Positions 1,717 to 48,165 of a stretch of 64,000 nucleotides of DNA are shown here, one piece after another. The translations under genes were made by a program, and so were the position numbers. Position 1 is the first letter of the stretch, and each line of letters begins with the position of its first letter. The stretch is from an uncultured Pseudomonadota bacterium (GTDB lineage Bacteria; Pseudomonadota; Alphaproteobacteria; JACZXZ01), in assembly GCA_963749075.1 (NCBI GenBank), contig CAVVLJ010000016.1:384001-448000 (forward strand), written 5' to 3'. The notes beneath the pieces were generated by a model, which did not search any database, was not told where the DNA came from, and worked only from the letters and a program-made list of their open reading frames with translations.

Positions 1717-3060
1717 ATGGCCGATGGCTTCGAGCTCGTCCTCAAGGGCGGCACCGTGGCGACGCCGGGCGGCCTCGTCGAGACCGACGTGGGCGTGCGT
1801 GCGGGCCGCATCGCCGCCTTCGGCAGCTTGGCTCTCGCCGCCGGCCGCACGGCGCTCGACGTGCGCGGACTGCATCTCCTCCCCGGCGTCATCGACACCC
1901 AGGTGCATTTCCGCGAGCCCGGCCACGAGCACAAGGAGGACCTCGCGAGCGGCACCCGCGCCGCCGCACTCGGCGGCGTCACGGCCGTGTGCGAGATGCC
2001 GAACACCCGGCCGAGCACCACCACGCGCGAGCTCCTCGAGGACAAGCTCGCGCGCGCGCGCGGCCGCGCCGCGGTCGACCATGCCTTCTTCGTGGGTGCT
2101 GCGCACGAGAATATAGGCGCGCTCGCGGCGCTCGAGCTCTTGCCCGGCTGCGCCGGCGTCAAGATGTTCATGGGGAGCTCGACCGGGAGCCTCCTCGTCC
2201 CCGATGACGAAGGGGTGCTCGCGGTGCTGCGCGCGGGGCGCCGGCGCGTGGCCGTGCACGCGGAGGACGAGGCGCGCCTCGTCGAGCGCAGGCGGATCGC
2301 CACGGACGGCGGCGACGTGCACCTCCATCCCCTATGGCGCGACGAGGAGACGGCACTCGCCGCGACGAGGCGCCTCATCGCGCACGCCCGGCGCGCGGGC
2401 CGCCGCGTCCACGTGCTGCACGTCACCACGGCGGGCGAGATGGTCTTCCTCGCCGAGCACAAGGAGATCGCCACCGTCGAGACGACGCCCCAGCATCTCA
2501 CGCTCGCGGCACCCGAGTGCTACGACCGCCTCGGCACGCTCGCCCAGATGAACCCGCCCATCCGAAGTGCCGCCCATCGCGAGGCCTTATGGCGCGCGGT
2601 CGCCCAAGGCGTGGTCGACGTGATCGGCTCCGATCATGCGCCCCATACGCTCGAGGAGAAGGCGAAGCCCTATCCCGAGAGCCCCTCGGGCATGCCCGGC
2701 GTGCAGACGCTGGTGCCGCTCCTCCTCGACCATGTCAACGCCGGCCGGCTCTCGCTCGCGCGCTTCGTCGATCTCACCAGCGCCGGTCCCGCGCGCATCT
2801 ACGGCATTGCCGGCAAGGGCCGCATCGCCCTCGGCTACGACGCGGACTTCACCATCGTCGATCTCGCGTTGAAGCGGCGCATCGAGAACGGCTGGATCGC
2901 CAGCCGCTGCGCCTGGACGCCCTTCGACGGCATGACGGTGGCCGGCTGGCCGCGCATGACCGTCATCCGCGGCCGCATCGTCATGCGCGAGGACGAGCTC
3001 CTGGGCGAGCCCGCAGGCGCCCCTTTGCGCTTTCTCGAGACGCTCGAAGCAGAAGGCTGA
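1717..3060 (+). CDS. pyrC: Dihydroorotase (amidohydrolase superfamily)
   Basis: PGVIDTQVHFREPG, EMPNT, KMFMGSSTG, SDHAPH and SPSGMPG motifs; starts 4 nt after the asnB stop. Confidence 0.85.
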   Translation: MADGFELVLKGGTVATPGGLVETDVGVRAGRIAAFGSLALAAGRTALDVRGLHLLPGVIDTQVHFREPGHEHKEDLASGTRAAALGGVTAVCEMPNTRPSTTTRELLEDKLARARGRAAVDHAFFVGAAHENIGALAALELLPGCAGVKMFMGSSTGSLLVPDDEGVLAVLRAGRRRVAVHAEDEARLVERRRIATDGGDVHLHPLWRDEETALAATRRLIAHARRAGRRVHVLHVTTAGEMVFLAEHKEIATVETTPQHLTLAAPECYDRLGTLAQMNPPIRSAAHREALWRAVAQGVVDVIGSDHAPHTLEEKAKPYPESPSGMPGVQTLVPLLLDHVNAGRLSLARFVDLTSAGPARIYGIAGKGRIALGYDADFTIVDLALKRRIENGWIASRCAWTPFDGMTVAGWPRMTVIRGRIVMREDELLGEPAGAPLRFLETLEAEG

Positions 3061-3313
3061 GGCGGCGCCGGCAGGCAGGGGTTCCTCCGCTGCAAAGCCC
3101 GGACCGCTCTTGGCCATATGCGCAATCCCTAAATAGGGCTTGCATTTTTACACGTTTTGGCCCATGTATCCATCATCCGTATCTGCTTCGGCACTTGCCG
3201 ATTTGCCCCCGTTTGGGGCGCACATCTCAGCAATCCATGAGGCCGGTAACTGGAGACGCCCTTGCGCGATGGTCGCGCAGGACGCGGAGACTCATATCCA
3301 CTAGGAGGCCATC

Positions 3314-3520
3314 ATGGCTATCGGTACCGTCAAGTTCTTCAACACCCAGCGCGGCTTCGGGTTCATTCAGCCGCAGGACGGCTCGAAGGACATCTTCGTG
3401 CACGTGAGCGCCGTCGAGCGCGCCGGCATGGCGACCCTGAACGAGGGTCAGAAGGTGTCGTACGAAGTCGAGCGCGGCCGCGACGGGCGCGTCTCGGCCG
3501 TCAACCTCTCCGCCGCGTAA
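3314..3520 (+). CDS. cspA: Cold-shock protein
   Basis: GTVKFFN..GFGFI (RNP1) and DIFVHVSA (RNP2) motifs, AGGAGG RBS, and a long AT-richer 5' region. Confidence 0.95.
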   Translation: MAIGTVKFFNTQRGFGFIQPQDGSKDIFVHVSAVERAGMATLNEGQKVSYEVERGRDGRVSAVNLSAA

Positions 3521-4216: not shown

Positions 4217-5541
4217 TTGAGCATCGCACGAAAGAGCGTCCTTGGCCTGGCCCTGCTGCTTGCGCGGGCTGCGGGAAGGCGTCGCAGCCTCAGGCAGCGC
4301 TTTGCGAGCGGGTCTCGGGCATCCTCTTCCCCGCGGACCGCATCGAGCGCCTCGAGAGCGAACGCGATGCCGGGAGCGCCCATCGGATTGCCACCCGCAT
4401 CACCTTGCGCGCGGCGGACGGGACGCTCGAGCGGCACCGCGTCGGCTGCAGCTTCGCGGGCGGCCCCTTCAGCCCCGGCCAGCTCGAGCTCGTCGAGGTC
4501 ACAAGCGACGTCGAGGGGCGGCTCAGCGCCGCGCACATGGCGGCCCTCGGCTTCGTGCTCGACCGCTTCGGAGGAAACGCCGGCGCCGCGGGGCCGGGGC
4601 CGCTCTCCCGACCGGCGCTCCGGCTCCCGCTCGGCGTCGAGACGCTTTATTTCCTGCAGCAACTCGTCAATGGCGTGACACTCGGCTGCGTCGTCTCGCT
4701 CATCGCGGTCGGCTACACGCTCATCTACGGCATCATCGGCGTCATCAATCTCTCCTTCGGCGAGATCTACATGATCGGCGCCTTCGCCGCCGTCATCGGC
4801 GCCCTCATGTTCATGATGCTCGGCGTCGCATCCCAGACGGCGAGCGTGCTCCTGGCGCTGCCCTTCGCCATGGCTCTCACCGCCGGCTACAGCATGATGA
4901 CCGACCGCCTGGTCTTCCGCCCCTTGCGCGAGGCGAGCACGCTCATGCCGCTCATCGCCTCGATCGGCCTAGCGCTCGTGCTGCAGAATTACGTCTTTCT
5001 CGTCGAGAGCGCGCGCAATCTTTGGCTGCCGGTGCACTCCGAGGACGGCATAGCGCTCGCCGCGGCCGGCAGCTTCAGCCTTTACGTCAACCGCCAGCAA
5101 GCGCTCGTCCTGGGGCTCACCGCACTCCTCGCGGGCGCCACCTGGTACATCCTCACGCGGACCCGTTTCGGCCGTGTGCAGCGCGCGTGCTCCTAGGACC
5201 GGCGCATGGCAGCGCTGCTCGGCGTCGACGTCGATCTCGTCGTCGCCTCGACCTTCGCCCTCGGCGGCGCCCTCGCCGCGGCCGGCGGGCTCATGGTCGC
5301 GAGCTATTACGGCGGGGTCAATTTCGCCATGGGCCTCTCCATGGGGCTCAAGGCGCTCACCGCCGCGATCGTGGGCGGCATCGGAAACTTCAAGGGGGCG
5401 TTGCTCGGCGGCTTCGTCGTGGCGCTGCTCGAGACTTTCTGGGCAGGCTATCTGCCGGGCGCCTACCGGGAGATCGCGGTGTTCGCGCTCCTCATCGTGC
5501 TGCTCATCTTCCGGCCGCAGGGCATTCTCGGCGAGGTGTGA
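4217..5541 (+). pseudogene. livH: Branched-chain amino acid ABC permease (LivH-like) with an N-terminal lipoprotein/periplasmic extension, interrupted by a frameshift (~4262) and an in-frame TAG (5194-5196)
   Basis: LQQLVNGVTLG..IAVGYTL..GVINLSFGE, then TRFGRVQRACS*DRRMAALLGVD continues in frame to FRPQGILGE. The signal MSIARKSVLGLALLLA joins GCGK in another frame. Confidence 0.8.
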
Positions 5542-5551
5542 GGGCGGCAGC

Positions 5552-6718
5552 TCAGAGCTTGTGGAGCGTACCGCCCTGCCAGCCGTAGATGTCGTAATGC
5601 AGCTCCTTGGGATCGCCCTTGGCATCGAAGCTGATTTTGCCGATCGCAGTGCTGTAGTCGCCCTCGCGCAAGGCCTTGGCCACGGCGGCGGCGTCGACCG
5701 AGCCGGCACGCCCGGCGGCCTTGGCGTAGAGCTCGACCGCTGCGTAGGCGTAGAGCGTGTAGCCCTTGGCGTCGACGCCGTAGCGCGCCAGTCCGGCGAC
5801 CGGATTGGGCGCGTTGCGCGATTGCTCGGTGCTGGTGTTGGCGCCCGTCTCGCTCATGTCCGGGAGCGAGGTCATGAAGGTGCCGTCCGCCGCCGCCCCG
5901 GCAGTCTTGGCGAAGTCGCCAGCAAGCAGCGTATCGCCGCCGCCGAACGCCGCATCGAGCCCCTGCGCGCGCGCCGCGACGAGGAAGTTGGCGGCCCTCT
6001 CCGCGTAGCCGCCGAAGACGATGACGCCGATGCCGTTGGCCTTGAGGCGCGAGGCGAGGGCCGCCGGGTCGTCGGCACTGCCGAGGGTCGTATCCTCGCG
6101 CGCCGCAGGGGCGCCCGCGTCGGCGAGCGCCTTCCGCGTCGAGGCGACGACGGTCGTGCCATAGGGGGTTCCGTCGCTCACCAGCGCCACGGCCGCATTG
6201 GGATAATGCGCGAGGATGTATTTGACGAGCGCCGGGCCCTGCATGTCGTCGCGCGGCACGGTGCGGAAGATGTTGGTATTGCCGCGCGCCGCCGCCTCGT
6301 CCGTGAGCGCCCCGCTGGTCGAGGACGGCGTGATCATCACGATGTCCGCGGCACCGTAGACGGGCGCCGCGGCGATCGAGGAGGGCGAGCAGAAGTGCCC
6401 GACCACGAGGGCGAAGTGCTCGGCGACCAGTCCGGCCGCGATGCCGGCGGCGCGCTTCGCATCGCACTGATCGTCGACCGTGCGCAGCTTGAGCACGTGA
6501 CCGTCGACGCCGTTCGCCGAATTCACGTCCTCGATGGCCTGCTGCACGCCGGCGCGCATCTGCCCGCCGAGCGCGCTATAGGGGCCGTGCATGGGGCCGA
6601 CCACGGCTATGTCGAGCGGCGGGGCGGTATCGACGTTGAAGATCGACGTGACCTCGCTGCAGGCGGCAAGCATGGCAAACGGCAAGAGCCAGGGGAGGAG
6701 TCTCGAGATCGGTGGCAT
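5552..6718 (-). CDS. Branched-chain amino acid ABC substrate-binding lipoprotein (LivJ/LivK family)
   Basis: LAAC lipobox; IAVVGPMHG, DDQCD, VGHFCS, FRTVPRDDMQG and IGKISFDAKGD motifs. Confidence 0.9.
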   Translation of the reverse strand: MPPISRLLPWLLPFAMLAACSEVTSIFNVDTAPPLDIAVVGPMHGPYSALGGQMRAGVQQAIEDVNSANGVDGHVLKLRTVDDQCDAKRAAGIAAGLVAEHFALVVGHFCSPSSIAAAPVYGAADIVMITPSSTSGALTDEAAARGNTNIFRTVPRDDMQGPALVKYILAHYPNAAVALVSDGTPYGTTVVASTRKALADAGAPAAREDTTLGSADDPAALASRLKANGIGVIVFGGYAERAANFLVAARAQGLDAAFGGGDTLLAGDFAKTAGAAADGTFMTSLPDMSETGANTSTEQSRNAPNPVAGLARYGVDAKGYTLYAYAAVELYAKAAGRAGSVDAAAVAKALREGDYSTAIGKISFDAKGDPKELHYDIYGWQGGTLHKL

Positions 6719-40529: not shown

Positions 40530-41231
40530 ATGGGACACGAGACGCCGCCGTCCGGCGGGCAGAGGAGCGAGCGGGCGCCTGCCCTCGAGCGCGTGCTCCT
40601 GGCACTCCTCGCCCTCGTCCTCGCCGGCAAGGCCGGCGCGCTCGGGCGGGATGCCTTCCTCATGCTGCGGGAGATCGAGCCCGGCGAGCCCGACGCGATG
40701 CTGCTGGCGAACGTGATCGGCGCTGCGACGGCCTGCGCCTATGTGCTGCTGCTCGCTTGCCTCTTCATGATCCGGCCGCCGGCCTTGGCCAAGTACCGCG
40801 AGCTCTGGCCGCGGCTGGCCGCACTCCTCGGCAGCCTGCTGCCGTTCGCCGTGCCGTTCTTTCCGCCCGCCGAGGAGTTGCCGTACGAGCTGCACCTTGC
40901 CGCTAGCGCGATCAGCCTCGTCGGCATGGCGTTCGCGCTCTACATCCTAGTCTGGCTCGGCCGCTCCTTCAGCATCACCCCCCAGGCCCGCGGGCTGGTG
41001 ACGCGCGGCCCCTACCGCTACCTGCGCCATCCGCTCTACGCGGCGGAATACGTCGCCGGCCTCGGCGTGATGGCCCACTATCTTTCGCTCTGGGCGATCC
41101 TCATCACCCTCGCCCAGGGTGCCCTGCAGGTCTGCCGCATGCATTACGAGGAGCGCCTGCTGCGCCAGGTCTTTCCGGACTATGACGACTATGCCGCAAG
41201 GACGGCGCGCGTCCTGCCCGGCATCTACTAG
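40530..41231 (+). CDS. Isoprenylcysteine carboxyl methyltransferase (ICMT/PEMT) family membrane protein
   Basis: LGRSFSI, LVTRGPYRYLRHPLY and EERLL..F..Y..Y motifs. Confidence 0.85.
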   Translation: MGHETPPSGGQRSERAPALERVLLALLALVLAGKAGALGRDAFLMLREIEPGEPDAMLLANVIGAATACAYVLLLACLFMIRPPALAKYRELWPRLAALLGSLLPFAVPFFPPAEELPYELHLAASAISLVGMAFALYILVWLGRSFSITPQARGLVTRGPYRYLRHPLYAAEYVAGLGVMAHYLSLWAILITLAQGALQVCRMHYEERLLRQVFPDYDDYAARTARVLPGIY

Positions 41232-41301
41232 GCGAATGCCGCCAGCGGCCGCGGCAACGTCGCCGCGGCGATTGCGTTTGCCGCCCGACGCGCGCCGGTG
41301 T

Positions 41302-41838
41302 CTACTTCTTCTTCGGAGCGCCCGCGCTCACGATGCGGTCGAAGACCACGGTGAAGTCCGCCGGCTTACCTTGCGCATCAGGCGCCGTGCCCGAGCAGGT
41401 CATCTTCTTCCGATCGGGCGACAGCGTGCAGGTCGACGTGCTGCCGGTCTCGGACTTCTTGCTCGTGAACTTGCTCTGCAACGAGCCGTCGGGCAGCACC
41501 GTGTAGGCGCGCGTCGCCCCGTCGTCGCGGCCCTTGACCGGGTAGGGCTTGCCGTCGAAGGCGCCGTCGAAGCCCTCGGAGCGCTCGGAGCCGTCCGGAT
41601 AGGTGATCTCGAGCGACATTTGCACGCGGTTGTAGTCGGTGTGCCCGTGCCCCGTGAAGTTCTTGATGTCCCAAATGATTTCCTGGGGCGCCGCGACTCC
41701 AGGAACGAGCTTGGACTCGTCCTTGTTCCAGTGCCAGGCACCGGAGAACGGGCTGATCGTCATCGCCGCCCGGACCGGGATCACGGCCGCCAAAGCCAAG
41801 AGACCGGCCGCCGCTGCGCCAATCGCCAATCGCCTCAT
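41302..41838 (-). CDS. Secreted hypothetical protein, predicted beta-rich, with one Cys pair
   Basis: Sec signal ending VRA; FSGAWHWNKDES, FDGKPYPV, CTLSPDRKKMTC and VFDR segments; AGGAGG RBS. Confidence 0.75.
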   Translation of the reverse strand: MRRLAIGAAAAGLLALAAVIPVRAAMTISPFSGAWHWNKDESKLVPGVAAPQEIIWDIKNFTGHGHTDYNRVQMSLEITYPDGSERSEGFDGAFDGKPYPVKGRDDGATRAYTVLPDGSLQSKFTSKKSETGSTSTCTLSPDRKKMTCSGTAPDAQGKPADFTVVFDRIVSAGAPKKK

Positions 41839-41931
41839 GGGAACCTCCTTCTCTGGATCAGGATGGGATCGTATCACCGCCCAAGGCGAAATTCAGCAGC
41901 CAAAACGGGGCATCGCCGAAGCCCTCGCCGG

Positions 41932-43083
41932 TCAGGCCTCGGCCCGGCGCGCGGCCGGCTCGGCGTAGCGCGCGCCCATATAGGCGAGGCTGATCTCGGT
42001 GATCGCCTTCTTCATCAGGCGGCAATGCAGCGTCTCGGTGCCTTCGAAGGTGCCGAGCTCGTAGAACTTGTTGGAGGGGGCGCCGCCGCCGCAAACCTCG
42101 AAATACTCGCAACTAGCCCGGCATTGCTCCACCCCCCGCGTGACCGCGCCCTTGAGGCGCGCGTACCGCCCGCCGGCGAGGATGGCCGCGAGATCCTCGG
42201 TCAGGAGATTGCCGATGGTGAAATTGTCCCATTCCGCGTTCTCCATGCCCAGGAGCTCGGGCGAGAACGTCGAGCAGTTGCCGAGATGGTCCACGCTCAA
42301 GATCGACAAGGGGGCGCTCTCGGTCGAGACGAAGTCGGGCGGCCGCGACAGGATGAGCCGCACGCACTGCTGCAGTTCGCGGATCATGAGGGGCCGGCCG
42401 TGCGCGTCGTTGAGCTCGAGGAGCCGCGTGAAGAAGCGCGTGAATTTCGCCGGCGCCTCCTCGTCGCTCAGCGTCGACGACTTGTTCTCCGCCTCGATCT
42501 CGTCGATGTTGAAGCCGACGCTGGAGATGCGGTTGCCGGCGAAGAAGTCGAAGATGGCGTCGGGATTCTCGATGGAGGGCTGCGTCAGCACCGCGATGAC
42601 GTGGAACGGCAGCGCTGCCTCCTGAAGGAGCCGCACGCCGCGCATGGTCGCCGCGAAGGTCCCCTTGCCGGCGCGCGTACGCCGGTTGACGTCGTGGATC
42701 TCCTGCGGCCCGTCCAGGCTTACGCCGACCTGAATGTTGTGCTCCTTGATCAGCTGGATCCAGTCGGCGTTCAAAAGCGTGCCGTTCGTCTGGAAGCTGT
42801 AGCGGATCGCGGTGCCGGCCGGCAGGTGCCGCGCCATCTCGGCGAATGCCGCCCGGTACCAGTCGACCGGTGCCGCGAGCGGCTCGCCCGCATGCCAGAC
42901 GATGCTGATGTCCGGCGGCAGCGGCGAGAAATAGTCGAAGAGCTTCTTCGCGATGACGCTCAAAGTCTCGAGCGTCATCCGCGCCTTGGAGGTGCGGTTG
43001 GGCAGGTAGCAATAGGCGCAGTCGATGTTGCAGAACGGCGTCGCCTGAATGACCAGGAGCTCAGGGAACTGGACCCGATCCAT
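41932..43083 (-). CDS. grrM: Radical SAM/SPASM peptide maturase, GrrM/OscB-like cyclophane (triceptide) synthase
   Basis: LVIQATPFCNIDCAYCY (CxxxCxxC), WHAGEP, QTNG and VSLDGP motifs; SPASM region STFSPE, CRASCEYFEVCGGGAPSNK and ETLHC. Confidence 0.85.
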   Translation of the reverse strand: MDRVQFPELLVIQATPFCNIDCAYCYLPNRTSKARMTLETLSVIAKKLFDYFSPLPPDISIVWHAGEPLAAPVDWYRAAFAEMARHLPAGTAIRYSFQTNGTLLNADWIQLIKEHNIQVGVSLDGPQEIHDVNRRTRAGKGTFAATMRGVRLLQEAALPFHVIAVLTQPSIENPDAIFDFFAGNRISSVGFNIDEIEAENKSSTLSDEEAPAKFTRFFTRLLELNDAHGRPLMIRELQQCVRLILSRPPDFVSTESAPLSILSVDHLGNCSTFSPELLGMENAEWDNFTIGNLLTEDLAAILAGGRYARLKGAVTRGVEQCRASCEYFEVCGGGAPSNKFYELGTFEGTETLHCRLMKKAITEISLAYMGARYAEPAARRAEA

Positions 43084-43118
43084 CGGCAAACACGTCGAGC
43101 GCCCGAACGCGCGAGCGC

Positions 43119-43472
43119 TCAGAAATTGCCCCAGAAGCCGTTGCCCCAATTGTGCCAATTGTGCCAATTGTTCCAGGGCACATAGTGGCTGCCCCAATTC
43201 GGCCAATTGACCCACTGCACCTTGGTCAGAAGGTTCTCGCGCAGAAGCTCGTCGGTCACGGCCGGGTTCGCCATGGCAAGCGTCCGCACGGCGTTCACGC
43301 GCTCGCCCAGCGACGGCACCGGCTCGATGGCCTTGGCGGGACTCGCCGAGACCGCGACGCCGGCAACAAGCGCTGCCGCACCCGCCCCCAGCAAGAATTT
43401 GCGGCCCATCATCGACGTTTCAGCGGGAGAAGCCTGCGGATTCTCAGCCTTGCCGTCAAGACGCTTCGCCAT
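43119..43472 (-). CDS. RiPP precursor peptide (GrrA/OscA-like), 117 aa, with a W-x-N repeat core
   Basis: GGAGG RBS. The C-terminus is QWVNWPNWGSHYVPWNNWHNWHNWGNGFWGNF, and the gene lies immediately upstream of the rSAM gene. Confidence 0.85.
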   Translation of the reverse strand: MAKRLDGKAENPQASPAETSMMGRKFLLGAGAAALVAGVAVSASPAKAIEPVPSLGERVNAVRTLAMANPAVTDELLRENLLTKVQWVNWPNWGSHYVPWNNWHNWHNWGNGFWGNF

Positions 43473-43613
43473 TACCGATCCTCCCATCAAACCAAAGCCG
43501 TAGACGCATTTTGTCACCGCGCCATGCTAAAGGTCAAGAACGATCGTCCCTTGAACGCCTGCCGAGGGCGGCGGTTCCGCGGGGACGCGCGGGCCTTCCG
43601 GCCGGGCATCGGC

Positions 43614-44810
43614 TCAACTCTTGCGGGATTTGCGGGTGCGCGCCGCGCGCGTGGCCGGCGGCAGCGAGACCTTGCCCACATAGGTCGTGAACTCGCCGTG
43701 CTTGCGGTAGGCCTCGCCGTACTTGGCCACCTTGTCCTCGTCGATCTCGACGCCTAGGCCGGGCTTCTCGATGCGGCCCCAGCGCGGCCCGTCGGCGATC
43801 GGCAGTCGCTCGCTGAGGATGTCGTCCTCCATGAGCTGCGCCGTCTGCTGGTGCCCGAGGCAGGCATTGGGGATCGTCAGCATGATGTGCTGGCCGGCCG
43901 CGGCGGTGAGGCCGAGCTCGCCATGGGTGTGCTTGCAGACGAGCCAGCCCTCCATGTGCCCGGCATGGCAGAGCATGTGCCAGCGCGCGAGCGAGCCGAC
44001 CCAATATTGCGAGAAGCAGAGATAGTGCCCGGCGCGGGCCCGGATGATGCGCCAGGCATCGGCTTCGCGCCACAGGCCCTCGTTGACGCAGATCGGCACG
44101 TCCGTCTGCCGCATGAGGTCGAGATTGTTCTCGATCGGATCGATGCGCACCGGCGCCTCGGCGAAGTCGAGCGTGAACTTGCCGTGCCAGCGCTTCAAGA
44201 GCCGCACCGCCGTCGGCATGTCCCAGGCCTGGTTCACGTCGATGCGGATCCTGCCCTCGGGTCCGATGCCGTCGCGCAGCGCCTCGAGCATCGCCTCCTC
44301 CTTCTTCTCGTCGACTCCGGCCTTGATGTAGTAGGTGCCGTATCCCCGCCCGACGCCGTCCTTGGCCTGGCGCGCGATCTCCTCGGGCGTGCCCCATTCC
44401 ATATAATAGAAATAGTCGACCTCCTCGCGCATCGCACCGCCGAACAGGCGATAGAGCGGCTCGCCGCACGCCTTGCCGCAGAGATCCCACAGCGCCATGT
44501 CGATGCCGGCGTAGGCGAAGTTGCCGGTCATCGGCTGGAACGCCCAGAGCGCCGGGATCGCGAGATCGCGGTGGATAGCCTCCTTGTCCCAGGGGTCGCG
44601 CCCGAGCACGAGCGGCGTCATCGCCTTGATAGCACTCTCGATGCCCGGCACGTCGGCGGCGCGCGTGCATTCGCCCCAGCCGACGAGGCCGTTGCTTGCT
44701 GTCGCCTTGACGAGGACGTCGGCGACGCCGGCGCGGGCGATGAGCGAGCTCGCCTCGACGTGCTTGTAGGGAACGCGGACGGGAATGGCTTCGAGCTTGA
44801 CCACCTTCAT
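43614..44810 (-). CDS. Mandelate racemase/muconate lactonizing enzyme (enolase superfamily) protein
   Basis: GWGE, IDMALWDLCGK, RIDVNQ, FAEAP, NEG and PGLGVEID motifs. Confidence 0.88.
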   Translation of the reverse strand: MKVVKLEAIPVRVPYKHVEASSLIARAGVADVLVKATASNGLVGWGECTRAADVPGIESAIKAMTPLVLGRDPWDKEAIHRDLAIPALWAFQPMTGNFAYAGIDMALWDLCGKACGEPLYRLFGGAMREEVDYFYYMEWGTPEEIARQAKDGVGRGYGTYYIKAGVDEKKEEAMLEALRDGIGPEGRIRIDVNQAWDMPTAVRLLKRWHGKFTLDFAEAPVRIDPIENNLDLMRQTDVPICVNEGLWREADAWRIIRARAGHYLCFSQYWVGSLARWHMLCHAGHMEGWLVCKHTHGELGLTAAAGQHIMLTIPNACLGHQQTAQLMEDDILSERLPIADGPRWGRIEKPGLGVEIDEDKVAKYGEAYRKHGEFTTYVGKVSLPPATRAARTRKSRKS

Positions 44811-44837
44811 GGCGCACCTTTCGCGTATGTTGACGGA

Positions 44838-45521
44838 TCAACGGCCTCGGCCCATGCGCGACTCCATGTAGCGCACGGAGAGCGACAGCGGATAGCACAT
44901 GACGAAATAGATGCCGGCGACCAGCACGAAGACCGCCATGGGCTGGTACTCGGCAAAGGCGATGCTCTTGGCGTCGTTCATCAATTCGTTGACGCCGATG
45001 AGCGAGCAAAGCGCCGTGTCCTTCACCAGGCCGATGGCATAGTTGGCGACCGGCGGCAGCACGATGCGCACGGCCTGCGGCAGGATGATGTGGGCCATGG
45101 CCTTCGCCGGCGTCATGCCGAGGGATAGTGCTGCCTCGCGCTGGCCGCCGTGCAAGGCCTCGATGCCCGCGCGGAAGACCTCGGCAAGGATGGCCCCGCC
45201 GTGGATGCCGAGGCCGAGCACGGCACCCACGAAGGCGTCGAGCCACGTCCAATTGATGTCGGGGACCAATTGCGGCGGCACGAAGTAGACGATGTAGAGG
45301 AGCACGACGATGGGCAGCCCGCGCGCGACCTCGATATAGACCACGGCGGCGGTGCGGAGGATGCGGTGGCGCGAGGTGCGGCAGAGCGCCATCGCGAGGC
45401 CGATGGCGATGGCCAGGAGGAACGATACGGCGGCGATCGCCAGCGTCGTCTGGCAGAACGACAGCAGCTCCGGCAGCCAGCGGCCGATGTTGGCGGCGTA
45501 CACCTTGGGAAGATCGAGCAT
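44838..45521 (-). CDS. Polar amino acid ABC permease
   Basis: ARGLP and AEVFRAGIEALHGGQREAALSLG motifs. Confidence 0.9.
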   Translation of the reverse strand: MLDLPKVYAANIGRWLPELLSFCQTTLAIAAVSFLLAIAIGLAMALCRTSRHRILRTAAVVYIEVARGLPIVVLLYIVYFVPPQLVPDINWTWLDAFVGAVLGLGIHGGAILAEVFRAGIEALHGGQREAALSLGMTPAKAMAHIILPQAVRIVLPPVANYAIGLVKDTALCSLIGVNELMNDAKSIAFAEYQPMAVFVLVAGIYFVMCYPLSLSVRYMESRMGRGR

Positions 45522-45536
45522 GGCCGGCGGCGGTCC

Positions 45537-46202
45537 TTAGTGCCAGGCCCGTCGCGCCAGCTCGAGGCGGGCGGCCAGGCGGGCCATGGGGATGGTCATC
45601 GAGAGATAGATGGCGCCGGCCATGAGGTAGACCACGGCGCTCTGCAGCGTCTCGGTCACCAGGTTGCGCGCATAGGCCATGACTTCCGGAACCGCGACCG
45701 CATAGACGATCGCCGTGTCCTTCAAGAGGACGATCGCGAAATTGGTGATCGGCGGCAGCATGGTGCGCACCGCCTGCGGCAGGATGATGAACTGCATCGC
45801 GCGCGCCGGCGTCATGCCGAGCGTGAGCGCGGCCTCGAGCTGCCCCTTGTGGATCGCCTCGATGCCGGCGCGGTAAATCTCGGCGAGATAGGCCGCACCA
45901 TTGAGCCCGAGGCCCACGATGGCGGCTTCCAGCGGCGTCGGCTCGAGGCCGGCGTCGGGCAGCCCGAAATAGATCACGAAGAGCTGGACCAAGGCAGGGG
46001 TGCCGCGCAGGAACTCGATATAGGCGATCGCCGGATAGCGCACGATGCGCCAGCGCGACATGCGCAGAAGGGCGATGACCAGTCCGAAGGCAAGTGCGAA
46101 GAGGAGCGCTCCGGCCGTGACCTCGACGGTCGCCGGCAGCCCGCCGAGGAGCGTCGTGAGGAAATACCAGCCCCTCTCGGTCAGCACGTGGAGAAAACGC
46201 AT
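45537..46202 (-). CDS. Polar amino acid ABC permease
   Basis: LRGTPALVQLF and AEIYRAGIEAIHKGQLEAA motifs. Confidence 0.9.
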   Translation of the reverse strand: MRFLHVLTERGWYFLTTLLGGLPATVEVTAGALLFALAFGLVIALLRMSRWRIVRYPAIAYIEFLRGTPALVQLFVIYFGLPDAGLEPTPLEAAIVGLGLNGAAYLAEIYRAGIEAIHKGQLEAALTLGMTPARAMQFIILPQAVRTMLPPITNFAIVLLKDTAIVYAVAVPEVMAYARNLVTETLQSAVVYLMAGAIYLSMTIPMARLAARLELARRAWH

Positions 46203-46263
46203 GAGGGCGGGACCTTCTGGTGCTTTTCGCTAGGGCGTGATCCGAGCTGGCCGAAAGACCTGG

Positions 46264-46325
46264 CGTCACCCCCGCGAAGGCGGGGGTCCGCAAGCTGCTG
46301 GATTCCCGCTTTCGCGGGAATGACG
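46264..46325. repeat. REP-like extragenic palindromic element inside the ABC operon
   Basis: CGTCACCCCCGCGAAGGCGGGGGTCC ... CTGGATTCCCGCTTTCGCGGGAATGACG; same family as 8337-8415. Confidence 0.75.
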
Positions 46326-46361
46326 ATGTAAATATCCGTTTCGCTCCGACGGGATCATGCT

Positions 46362-47135
46362 CTACCGCTCCTGGATGTGCTTGAGGAACTCCCGCGTGCG
46401 CGGCAGCTGCGGATTGAAGAGGACCTCGCGCGGCGCGCCCTGCTCGACGATCTTGCCGCCGTCCATGAAGACCACGCGGTCGGAGACCTCGCCGGCGAAC
46501 TGGATCTCGTGCGTGACGATGACCATGGTGCGGCCCTCCTCGGCAAGCTGGCGCATGACGCGCAGGACCTCGCCGATGAGTTCGGGGTCGAGCGCCGAGG
46601 TCGCCTCGTCGAACAGCATGAGCTTCGGCTGCATGGCGAGCACGCGGGCGATCGCCACGCGTTGCTGCTGGCCGCCCGAGAGGCGCTCCGGGTACTCGCC
46701 CATCTTGTGGGCGAGGCCCACCTTGGTCAGCATCTCGCGGCCGCGCGCCTCGGCCTCCTCGCGCGGGAGCGCCAGCACCTTGCGCGGAGCGATCGTCACG
46801 TTGTCGAGCGCCGTGAGGTGCGGGAAGAGATTGAAGCGCTGGAAGACGAAGCCGATCTCCTGGCGCTCCTTGGCGAGCTCGCGGTCGCTCAGGTGGACGT
46901 AGCCGCCCTGCGTCTGGCGCTCTCCGATCAGGTTGCCGTCGATATAGACGTGGCCCGAGGTGGGCTTCTCGAGATAGTTGATGCAGCGCAGGAGCGTCGT
47001 CTTGCCCGAGCCGCTGGGACCGATGATGGCGACCTTCTCGCCGCGCGCCACGTCGAGGCTGACTCCTGAGAGCACCTCGAGCTCGCCGAATCGCTTGTGG
47101 AGATCGACGATGCGCAGCAGGGATTGCGCCGCCAT
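46362..47135 (-). CDS. Polar amino acid ABC ATPase (GlnQ-like)
   Basis: GPSGSGKT, LSGGQQQR and FDEATSALDPE motifs. Confidence 0.92.
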   Translation of the reverse strand: MAAQSLLRIVDLHKRFGELEVLSGVSLDVARGEKVAIIGPSGSGKTTLLRCINYLEKPTSGHVYIDGNLIGERQTQGGYVHLSDRELAKERQEIGFVFQRFNLFPHLTALDNVTIAPRKVLALPREEAEARGREMLTKVGLAHKMGEYPERLSGGQQQRVAIARVLAMQPKLMLFDEATSALDPELIGEVLRVMRQLAEEGRTMVIVTHEIQFAGEVSDRVVFMDGGKIVEQGAPREVLFNPQLPRTREFLKHIQER

Positions 47136-47274
47136 CACGCCCCCGAGCACGGACCGGCGCTGCCTCTGCCGGCCGCGCAACCGAGGGGCGGGCCACCGGC
47201 CCGCCCCGTTCCCGTTCGCTGAACCGCGGCCAAGCGTGCGACAGAGACGCCGCGGCGCCGCCCTATTTGAAGCC

Positions 47275-48165
47275 CTATTTGAAGCAGTGTGCCGCGGTCG
47301 GCGCCTTGTAGTCGGCCGGCCGGTCGACGCCGATGCGCGGGTCCTTCTCGGGCGGAATGAACCACGACTTGTCGCCCATCCCGTACTTGGCCATGGTCTT
47401 GACGTTGATGCAGTTGGGCCAGATGTCCTCGCGGATGATCTTGCTCATGGCCGCGGCGAGCTCGGGCTCCTCTTTGTTCACGCCGAAGATCACGTTGTAC
47501 TTGGTCGACATGATCGGGTACTTGGCCGCCATCGGGTCGAGCGGCAGCTGCTTGATCTTCCATTCGGGGTGCTGGACGATGCCCCATTGCACGAGGGGCG
47601 GGTCGAGGATGGCGATGTCGAGGCGGCCGGCGACGAGATCCTGGAGCACGCCGTCGGAGGTGTCGTAGAGCTTCACCTCGCCGATGCCCTCGATGCTCTT
47701 GAGCTCGGGCACCAGCGTGAAGCCCGTCACGGTGCCGGCCGAATGGCCTTTCATGTCGGCGAAGGTGTGGAAGTTGTTCGCGTCCTTCTGGGCGAGCAGC
47801 GTGCCGAAATAGTAGATCGGATCGGTCAGGTTCATGATCTTGGTGCGCGGCTCGATCCAGCCCATGGCACCGTGCATGACGTTGACCTTGCCTTGCTTGG
47901 TCGATTCGATCTCGGCGGCCCAGTCCATCTGCTGGACGACCGGCACGAGCCCCAGCTTCTTCGCGATATAGACCATCAATTCGCCGTCGGTCCCGCTCAG
48001 CACGCCATCCTTGAGCTGGGTCATCGGCATGTCGCCGTTCATGGCGATGTGGAGCTTGCCAGGCTCGATCGTCTTCACTTGGGCAGACGCGGGCATACTC
48101 GCGAGCCCGCCAGCGACGACCGCTACCGCGAAGGCGGCCGCCGCCCGACGCAGGTCGAATGTCAT
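47275..48165 (-). CDS. Polar amino acid ABC substrate-binding protein
   Basis: Signal peptide; GKLHIAMNG, GTDGEL and TDPIYY motifs; GGGAGG RBS. Confidence 0.85.
   Translation of the reverse strand: MTFDLRRAAAAFAVAVVAGGLASMPASAQVKTIEPGKLHIAMNGDMPMTQLKDGVLSGTDGELMVYIAKKLGLVPVVQQMDWAAEIESTKQGKVNVMHGAMGWIEPRTKIMNLTDPIYYFGTLLAQKDANNFHTFADMKGHSAGTVTGFTLVPELKSIEGIGEVKLYDTSDGVLQDLVAGRLDIAILDPPLVQWGIVQHPEWKIKQLPLDPMAAKYPIMSTKYNVIFGVNKEEPELAAAMSKIIREDIWPNCINVKTMAKYGMGDKSWFIPPEKDPRIGVDRPADYKAPTAAHCFK

Follow-up and report, generated by a model that had tools for sequence, protein, structure and literature searches.

The 64,000-nt stretch of DNA analyzed here (the window; contig CAVVLJ010000016.1, positions 384,001–448,000) comes from an uncultured soil alphaproteobacterium and carries on its minus strand a three-gene unit (41302–43537) that probably directs the synthesis of a triceptide-type ribosomal peptide. 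The unit encodes a 117 amino acid precursor, a radical S-adenosylmethionine (SAM) enzyme (rSAM) and a secreted third protein. The analysis establishes the membership of the enzyme in the GrrM/OscB family, the conservation of the precursor–enzyme pairing, the architecture of the precursor and its homology to GrrA/OscA1. At the sequence level, the two criteria of a triceptide, an Aromatic1-X2-X3 core and an rSAM of a family that forms three-residue cyclophanes, are found side by side, and Trp–Asn crosslinking is probably the chemistry performed on this substrate. OscB (IPR026357) joins C7 of Trp to Cβ of Asn or Asp, and C4 of Phe to Cβ of Asn, between residues i and i+2, giving products called triceptides (PMC11002830). 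W-x-N is therefore the known motif of this family, and an earlier first-pass annotation of the window, which stated that GrrM/OscB enzymes crosslink an aromatic residue to the third residue of motifs such as W-x-N, agrees with that source.

The precursor gene (43119–43472, minus strand; 117 codons and a stop) is preceded by a Shine–Dalgarno sequence, GGAGG (43480–43484, minus strand), at a distance of 7 nt from the ATG (43472), and its stop codon (43119–43121) is separated by 35 nt (43084–43118) from the ATG of the rSAM gene at 43083. The C-terminal end of the translation of 43119–43472 is QWVNWPNWGSHYVPWNNWHNWHNWGNGFWGNF, with seven W-x-N motifs and one W-x-S motif. The core (residues 86–117; 43122–43217, minus strand) consists of Gln, the triads WVN, WPN and WGS, the tetrapeptide HYVP, the triads WNN, WHN, WHN and WGN, the dipeptide GF, and a last WGN followed by Phe; its 32 residues include 8 Trp, 8 Asn and 5 Gly. 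The first-pass annotation had reported this open reading frame (ORF), its ribosome-binding site, the spacer and the motif count correctly, and its description of the core as rich in Trp, Asn and His rather than Gly also holds. It had further envisaged up to eight rings. Six or seven are the conserved expectation, because the W-G-S motif that would supply the eighth is missing from part of the clade. The middle residues of the W-x-N triads are V, P, N, H, H, G and G, and Gly is the commonest middle residue family-wide (322 of 1135 triads).

A chance origin of the W-x-N/S pattern is excluded. Among the 609 open segments of at least 50 amino acids in the six frames of the window, only the precursor ORF reaches eight Wx[NS] motifs in 32 residues, the runner-up having three, and a Poisson model gives an expectation of about 8e-10 for windows as dense as the core. 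A word-indexed search of 5.8 billion proteins returns 12 proteins of 115–118 amino acids with an invariant core, including that of the window; the WGSxYVP stretch is missing from three of them. In NCBIfam and Pfam the precursor has no significant match, the sole hit being LPAM_1 below threshold (E 0.46; 11.5 bits, cut-off 20).

The rSAM gene (41932–43083, minus strand) encodes 383 amino acids, including the motifs CNIDCAYC, WHAGEP and CRASCEYFEVCGGGAPSNK. The translation scores 416.6 bits (cut-off 310) with TIGR04261, the model for the cyclophane-forming radical SAM/SPASM peptide maturase GrrM/OscB, over model positions 1–360 of 363, and 67.4 bits with Pfam Radical_SAM. Every other rSAM model stays below its cut-off (score/cut-off in bits: AmcB 303/425, DynA 168.5/450, YhhB 161.7/445), as do XyeB (84 bits) and FxsB (128 bits). 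The assignment to GrrM/OscB and the motifs named in the first-pass annotation are thus borne out. The outcome named there as refuting, that the enzyme would group with anaerobic sulfatase maturases or other non-RiPP SPASM families (RiPP, a ribosomally synthesized peptide with post-translational modifications), did not occur: with the anaerobic sulfatase maturase model (TIGR03942), the score is 170.3 bits against a cut-off of 349.45. That the rSAM is nevertheless a non-RiPP SPASM enzyme and the Trp-rich ORF an unrelated or spurious neighbor is extremely improbable; the closest solved structures by sequence are indeed anaerobic sulfatase maturases (4k37, E 2e-22) and ChlB (9gm3), and many spurious ORFs arise in GC-rich DNA, but, besides the low maturase score, the ORF has a ribosome-binding site, is conserved as a protein in different phyla, and has the enzyme as its partner in all 23 real loci (see below).

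An alignment of 21 enzymes, consisting of the rSAM of the window and 20 partners of homologous precursors, has invariant cysteines at positions 18, 22, 25, 321, 325, 331 and 354. The CxxxCxxC motif corresponds to C18-x3-C22-x2-C25 (CNIDCAYC) and is invariant in all 21 sequences. Two loci with a split rSAM (L012 and L024) and one with two distant rSAMs (L026) are excluded from the alignment. The split genes, in Binatia-type metagenome-assembled genomes (MAGs; L012, 6385–7549; L024, 6382–7516), are each divided between two frames beside an intact precursor, and could reflect decay or assembly error. The longest ORF for the rSAM of the window has 427 amino acids (41932–43215, minus strand), starting from a GTG at 43215 and overlapping the precursor gene at its 3′ end; the start that agrees with the alignment of 20 homologues is the ATG at 43083. 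The NCBI entry for an 81%-identical homologue has 429 amino acids, which suggests that the public annotation of that protein contains an over-long start call like the GTG ORF of the window.

A whole-genome search finds one copy of the rSAM. Its clade is small and distinct (77–81% identity inside, at most 49% to all others) within a large family (4289 GrrM-type clusters at E ≤ 1e-40 among 8000 candidates scored), and the 81%-identical MAG protein is named GrrM/OscB cyclophane-forming maturase by NCBI. The distinctness of the clade, together with the scores on AmcB and DynA and the ability of related rSAM enzymes to make C–C, C–N and C–O links (PMC11499958), would fit an enzyme that performs another chemistry on the substrate, such as C–O or C–N linkage or oxidation of Asn Cβ. 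This is improbable, since GrrM/OscB is the best and the sole model above its cut-off and W-x-N is also the motif on which OscB is reported to act. The W-x-W motif of darobactin and the other daropeptides, which is paired with a DarE-type enzyme, does not occur in the core, and the rSAM scores 82.9 bits with DarE against a cut-off of 650.

The pairing of precursor and enzyme is conserved well beyond the window. A scan of one genome per species with the precursor profile yields 26 loci, 23 of which are judged real after reading of the translations. The three rejected loci (L015, L016 and L027) carry a short WHNWHNW stretch in an unrelated long frame or a hydrophobic protein, and are the sole loci without an rSAM match. 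In all 23 real loci, a GrrM-type gene lies immediately downstream of the precursor gene, with a gap of 21–94 nt in the 20 intact loci, and TIGR04261 is the family with the best E value for 21 of 21 intact enzymes (E ≤ 1e-20). About five phyla are represented, the hosts being Alphaproteobacteria, Binatia-type ‘delta proteobacterium’ MAGs and one MAG each of Isosphaeraceae and Chthoniobacterales. In the reverse direction, an ORF with aromatic-x-Asn repeats adjoins GrrM in two of three independent alphaproteobacterial loci outside the family of the window. Another refuting case named beforehand, that homologous rSAMs would lack an adjacent W-x-N ORF, is not what the 23 loci show. In one of the two reverse-test loci with a repeat ORF (L038), the W-x-N precursor is encoded about 800 nt downstream of the rSAM gene. 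The other (L041; G382:C1, 1123–1452) has, directly upstream of the GrrM gene, a Phe (F-x-N) version with the same architecture, in which a signal-like N-terminus and an R-L-S-A-I-R leader precede FPNFPNFNNFPNFPNFPNFPNFRNF.

Precursors of this kind form a large superfamily. A profile of 25 precursors matches 787 proteins at E ≤ 1e-3, including 97 at E ≤ 1e-10, among 1.84 billion cluster representatives (50% identity); nearly all of the best 150 of these 787 are 80–145 amino acids long and aligned over most of their length. In a set of 150 sequences comprising the precursor of the window and its 149 best relatives, the median is eight W-x-N triads per protein, and TIGR04260 (GrrA/OscA1 family cyclophane-containing rSAM-modified RiPP) matches 26, the AmcA model matching one. 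Two TIGR04260-positive relatives each score 50.4 bits (curated cut-off 31). The TIGR04260 search proposed in the first-pass annotation gives no match for the precursor itself, and the link to the family comes instead from profile comparison: hhalign aligns the 12-member subfamily of the window with two TIGR04260-positive proteins (probability 97.4%, E 1.3e-11), and the 81 aligned columns take in hydrophobic stretch, leader and core. The precursor is therefore, as judged by profile comparison, a divergent member of the GrrA/OscA1 superfamily that escapes the curated model.

Four parts are common to the precursor of the window and the 22 long precursors from real loci: a basic N-terminus, an uncharged stretch, a leader and the W-x-N core. 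In the window, residues 1–48 (43329–43472, minus strand) form a signal-peptide-like segment, composed of a basic n-region of 25 residues, the uncharged stretch FLLGAGAAALVAGVAVSASPA and then A-K-A; this N-terminus has a net charge of +2 and about 21 uncharged residues. Residues 49–85 (43218–43328, minus strand) form the leader, which contains S-L-x-x-R-V-x-x-V-R (residues 54–63) and a K-V-Q junction before the first Trp. Across 25 precursors from several phyla, the uncharged stretch is 18–27 residues long and is followed by a small-x-small site, mostly A-x-A. Arg58 is invariant in these 25 sequences and Arg63 is conserved in at least 90%, and both reach at least 90% in the 150-sequence set; the Trp and Asn columns of the core are invariant across phyla, in the close homologues as in the 25-precursor alignment. 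A crude signal-peptide heuristic of our own is passed by 128 of the 150 relatives, compared with 49 of 1500 shuffled sequences and none of 21 rSAMs, and A-x-A occurs in 103 of the 128 that pass. The first-pass annotation had described the motifs of the precursor accurately and had missed this N-terminal segment, which emerges from the feature analysis and the alignments.

Judging from these features, the chances are about even that the precursor carries a Sec-type signal peptide and is exported and cut after A46-K-A48. Export by Tat was considered and rejected: the window has G-R-K-F-L, and R-R occurs in one of the 12 close homologues and in 14 of 150 in the wider family. Sec signals are ‘highly unusual’ for bacterial RiPPs, and a 2025 survey reports demonstrated export for bufferins only, citing enterocin P and cinnamycin, which are not triceptides, as other suggested signal-peptide RiPPs (PMC12452194). 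No signal peptide on a triceptide precursor is described in the available portions of PMC12452194 and PMC10885120, a coverage that does not extend to the primary triceptide papers (Nat Chem 2020; JACS 2022). One locus (L026, 6004–10504) has a 52 amino acid W-x-N precursor without a hydrophobic N-terminus, and is the sole such locus. Here the precursor is accompanied by two more distant rSAM genes and then directly by a gene for a 559 amino acid ATP-binding cassette (ABC) exporter (ABC_membrane and ABC_tran), a layout of the classical leader-plus-exporter type that differs from that of the 22 signal-bearing precursors.

The hydrophobic N-terminus could instead be a recognition part for the enzyme, leaving the product in the cytoplasm or dependent on an unlinked transporter. 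The TIGR04260 profile spans the N-terminal region (residues 10–120 of protein P0027), the authors of the bufferin work suggest that a signal peptide aids enzyme recognition (PMC12452194), and the n-region is atypically long and has a single invariant Arg. This alternative is nonetheless unlikely: the sequence of the stretch is poorly conserved across phyla whereas its character and the A-x-A site are kept, which fits a targeting signal better than a binding epitope, and the signal-less precursor of L026 alone has a dedicated ABC exporter.

A different question is whether export through Sec would be followed by release of a peptide. The product could be a modified small protein that is kept whole, either as a periplasmic protein of about 69 residues or anchored in the membrane by an uncleaved signal anchor and displaying a rigid Trp-rich tail. 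No protease gene is conserved in the 23 loci, the uncharged stretch of 18–27 residues is enough to span a membrane, the leader is conserved past the proposed signal cut, and occurrence in six of six genomes of the genus resembles that of a housekeeping envelope component. On the other side, 103 of the 128 sequences have A-x-A behind the hydrophobic stretch, which suggests cleavage, the hydrophobicity is moderate (mean Kyte–Doolittle value about 2.2 in the best 15-residue window), and characterized triceptides are all proteolysed before the first cyclophane motif (PMC12912966). A protein kept whole is the less favored outcome, yet the most credible of the alternatives to a released Sec-exported peptide.

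The third gene (41302–41841, minus strand) begins 90 nt downstream of the rSAM gene on the same strand and encodes a secreted protein of 178/179 amino acids. It is present in four of five close alphaproteobacterial loci, the contig of the fifth ending too early, and in one MAG its locus tag adjoins those of the precursor–rSAM pair. Its family is no larger than that of the precursor, with only nine close and two distant homologues. A signal peptide is present, and the protein belongs to no Pfam family. A confident AlphaFold2 model (predicted local distance difference test, pLDDT, 79.8) has nine strands, and the Foldseek matches in the PDB below 1e-3 are mostly barrels of the fatty-acid-binding protein/lipocalin type, the top-ranked match being a de novo designed barrel; the scores are modest (E 8e-5 to 9e-4; template modelling, TM, score by target 0.42–0.65). 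A language-model atlas gives weak leads, also of a barrel-like kind. The protein is assigned a calycin-like β-barrel fold. A complex prediction for the barrel (residues 26–178) and the precursor (residues 49–117) scores 0.03 against a mark of 0.32, which is no answer and counts neither way. The description of the system as minimal in the first-pass annotation falls short, in that a third, co-oriented gene for a secreted barrel is conserved in the clade.

When all ORFs of the window and of the 23 real loci are compared with one another, no genes other than those for the precursor and the rSAM are common to all. No protease or exporter gene is conserved among the 23 real loci. A conserved ABC transporter was considered, and the corresponding BLAST cluster, which spans 17 loci, brings together ATPase domains from transporters that are not related to one another (by our own reading of the sequences, Liv-type, LptB-like and polar amino acid types) and is not a shared exporter. 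The Binatia clade has other partners instead, a divergently transcribed secreted protein of about 215 amino acids (15 loci) and a cytoplasmic protein of about 190 amino acids after the rSAM (14 loci), neither of which has a Pfam family. In locus L007, for example, the former is encoded at 2848–3498 (minus strand) and the latter at 5318–5893 (plus strand), and the same genes occur in other Binatia-type loci. The 215-residue protein is β-rich (model of moderate quality, pLDDT 68.8) and its predicted fold is weakly like carriers of the LprG, LolA, LppX and RseB type (TM 0.2–0.44; root-mean-square deviation 9–14), a carrier-like resemblance to be taken as a lead rather than a finding. Kinship between the alphaproteobacterial 178-residue protein and the Binatia 215-residue protein was considered and rejected, as BLASTP and hhalign find nothing beyond their signal peptides.

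The following mechanism is proposed. Gene 1 would be translated into the 117 amino acid pre-pro-peptide and gene 2 into the GrrM/OscB-family enzyme, which would bind the leader at S-L-x-x-R-V-x-x-V-R (residues 54–63) in the cytoplasm. Using SAM and Fe–S clusters, the enzyme would abstract a hydrogen from Cβ of the Asn in each W-x-N, and bond this carbon to the indole ring of the Trp that opens the triad (at C7 in OscB), giving a three-residue cyclophane and lowering the mass by 2 Da for each ring. The expected number of conserved rings is six to seven, with W-G-S as a possible eighth. The modified chain would leave by Sec and be cut after A46-K-A48, and additional proteolysis ahead of the first Trp may free a polycyclic core of about 32 amino acids. 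Use of the general secretion route would explain the absence of a conserved dedicated exporter or protease. Finally, the secreted barrel encoded by gene 3 may bind or carry the hydrophobic product, a role that we regard as conjectural and somewhat improbable.

As to function, the presence of the system throughout the genus and the lack of immunity or export genes make us lean, tentatively, toward a physiological role in the envelope or outside the cell rather than that of a classic antibiotic. The functions put forward in the first-pass annotation (metal binding, antibacterial or structural) are conjectural. More broadly, it is conceivable, although on balance doubtful, that GrrA/OscA-like triceptides are as a rule Sec-routed envelope peptides that make up a large, mostly unannotated superfamily of at least 787 cluster representatives, with about one in six of the best 150 recognized by the curated model, and not leader-plus-exporter natural products. 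Under such a scheme, a cytoplasmic rSAM would make Trp or Phe cyclophanes before Sec export and a signal peptidase cut, clade-specific secreted carrier-like barrels (calycin-like here, possibly LolA/LprG-like in Binatia) would act alongside, and the system would be fixed in the cell-envelope physiology of the genus of the window.

Several points weigh against the main reading of the unit as a system for a Sec-exported triceptide. The Pfam SPASM match of the rSAM is below threshold (13.1 bits, cut-off 21.5), and there are just four invariant C-terminal cysteines (C321, C325, C331 and C354), which leaves the complement of auxiliary clusters uncertain. The classical SPASM pattern has seven cysteines, more than these four. 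The precursor of the window has no TIGR04260 match even at E ≤ 1, and its core is not Gly-rich, unlike the Gly-rich repetitive C-terminal half implied by the older name of that model, Cyano_gly_rpt. The reverse test is small (n = 3 independent loci), and in its third locus (L039; G211:C26, 167–4234, in a 1.5-Mb genome), GrrM is above the cut-off and the 1.5 kb to each side of it contain no ORF with aromatic-x-Asn repeats. A distance of about 2 kb separates precursor and rSAM in the sister genus. The signal-peptide call comes from the heuristic described above and not from a trained predictor, 22 of 150 relatives fail it (several being N-terminally truncated records or near misses), and the n-region is unusually long (25 residues), with one invariant Arg only. 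The proposed order of events would oblige the rSAM to act before export, and premature passage through Sec of a cytoplasmic substrate with a signal peptide would have to be avoided. The calycin assignment draws on the modest Foldseek scores. Lastly, for the window and its close relatives, chemistry, export and function are predictions from sequence.

The closest known systems are OscA/OscB and GrrA/GrrM (TIGR04260 with TIGR04261), which share with the window the enzyme family, the W-x-N motif, the build of the precursor and the position of its gene directly before that of the rSAM. GrrA was first described from cyanobacteria. The precursor of the window differs from OscA and GrrA in its lack of recognition by TIGR04260 and in having back-to-back W-x-N triads with His, Pro and Asn in the middle in place of Gly-rich repeats, its host is an uncultured soil alphaproteobacterium, and its clade has the calycin-like third gene. 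AmcA/AmcB (NF041721, NF041718) is the second-best enzyme model and likewise yields multiple rings per precursor, but the rSAM of the window is below its cut-off and the AmcA model touches a single precursor in the set of 150. XncB/XyeB, MscB/FxsB, YhhB, ChlB and other enzymes that form three-residue cyclophanes have the enzyme superfamily and the aromatic-x-X logic in common with it; the scores of the rSAM with the XyeB, FxsB and YhhB models are far lower, and these enzymes use other aromatic carbons and partner residues (PMC11002830). The anaerobic sulfatase maturases, which include the closest solved structure and belong to the same SPASM-type fold family, act on sulfatases and not on a dedicated adjacent peptide.

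Bufferins and oxazolins, the RiPPs of MNIO enzymes, resemble the window in having a Sec signal in place of a dedicated exporter and in the order of precursor and then enzyme, the signal of the window being a predicted one (PMC12452194). MNIO enzymes are unrelated to radical SAM enzymes, however, and for bufferins the products have Cys-derived heterocycles, copper binding and demonstrated Sec export, whereas export is predicted in the window.

The cluster is not a new kind of system, because both its enzyme family and the chemistry of that family have been described, and proteins closely related to its rSAM already receive a name from public pipelines. What it adds is threefold: a large unannotated superfamily of precursors, the logic of a signal peptide on such precursors, and a clade-specific secreted partner. 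The curated precursor model detects neither this precursor nor most of the sequences scanned with it (124 of the 150 go unrecognized), and many triceptide clusters are consequently recorded as an enzyme with a neighboring ‘hypothetical protein’. The back-to-back W-x-N triads predict an unusually dense and rigid product of six to eight rings. The occurrence of the system in all genomes of the genus, unaccompanied by genes for immunity or export, also hints at a physiological rather than an antibiotic role.

Within the order of the window, represented by 11 genomes, the precursor occurs in six of six genomes of the genus (including that of the window), in the one genome of the sister genus and in none of four genomes from three other genera. 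GrrM above the cut-off is found in seven of 401 sampled genomes of the class, four of which belong to the family of the window. The sister-genus genome has two weaker precursor paralogues. In one locus (L035; G001:C40, 921–4445), a gene for a 567 amino acid B12-binding radical SAM protein lies between the precursor and GrrM; the best matches of this protein are of the BchE, PhpK or HpnJ type, all far below cut-off. The second paralogue (L034; G001:C5, 3941–4390) is an orphan, with no rSAM within 3.5 kb.

A promoter-like sequence, TTGACC-18 nt-CAAAAT with TG before the second hexamer (43508–43537, minus strand), is located just upstream of the precursor gene. It is a match to the consensus pattern only, and the scan finds one site in 41000–44000 compared with a mean of 0.3 in shuffled sequences. 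The 35-nt spacer between the precursor and rSAM genes (minus strand) contains a 10-bp GC hairpin that begins at the precursor stop codon (hairpin region 43084–43125). It was considered as an attenuator and rejected: its folding energy of –26.1 kcal/mol is not significant relative to shuffled sequences (z = –0.89). On the minus strand, no terminator-like site occurs in either intergenic spacer, and the only such site within the unit (42950–42936) is inside the rSAM coding sequence. A GC-rich 8-bp hairpin between the convergent genes (41248–41269, not assigned to a strand; the terminator-like scan lists the plus strand) is a possible end of the unit.

In a soil metatranscriptome, one 357-nt contig covers 43130–43486 with four differences, corresponding almost exactly to the precursor gene and its ribosome-binding site. 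The comparison was made over a 2351-nt stretch, no other part of which is covered in the same RNA run, and it uses contigs, not reads, so levels are not comparable; neither the parts left uncovered here nor the small shares seen for runs X3 and X4 bear on absence or habitat. The contig is a weak hint that the precursor is transcribed, with DNA carry-over a possible source.

The genes on either side look ordinary and unrelated to the cluster. On one flank, a PEMT/ICMT-type membrane methyltransferase gene (40530–41231, plus strand) is convergent with the third gene. On the other (43614–48165, minus strand), there are an enolase-superfamily (MR/MLE) protein and an operon that, according to a reading of the translations, encodes a polar amino acid ABC transporter.

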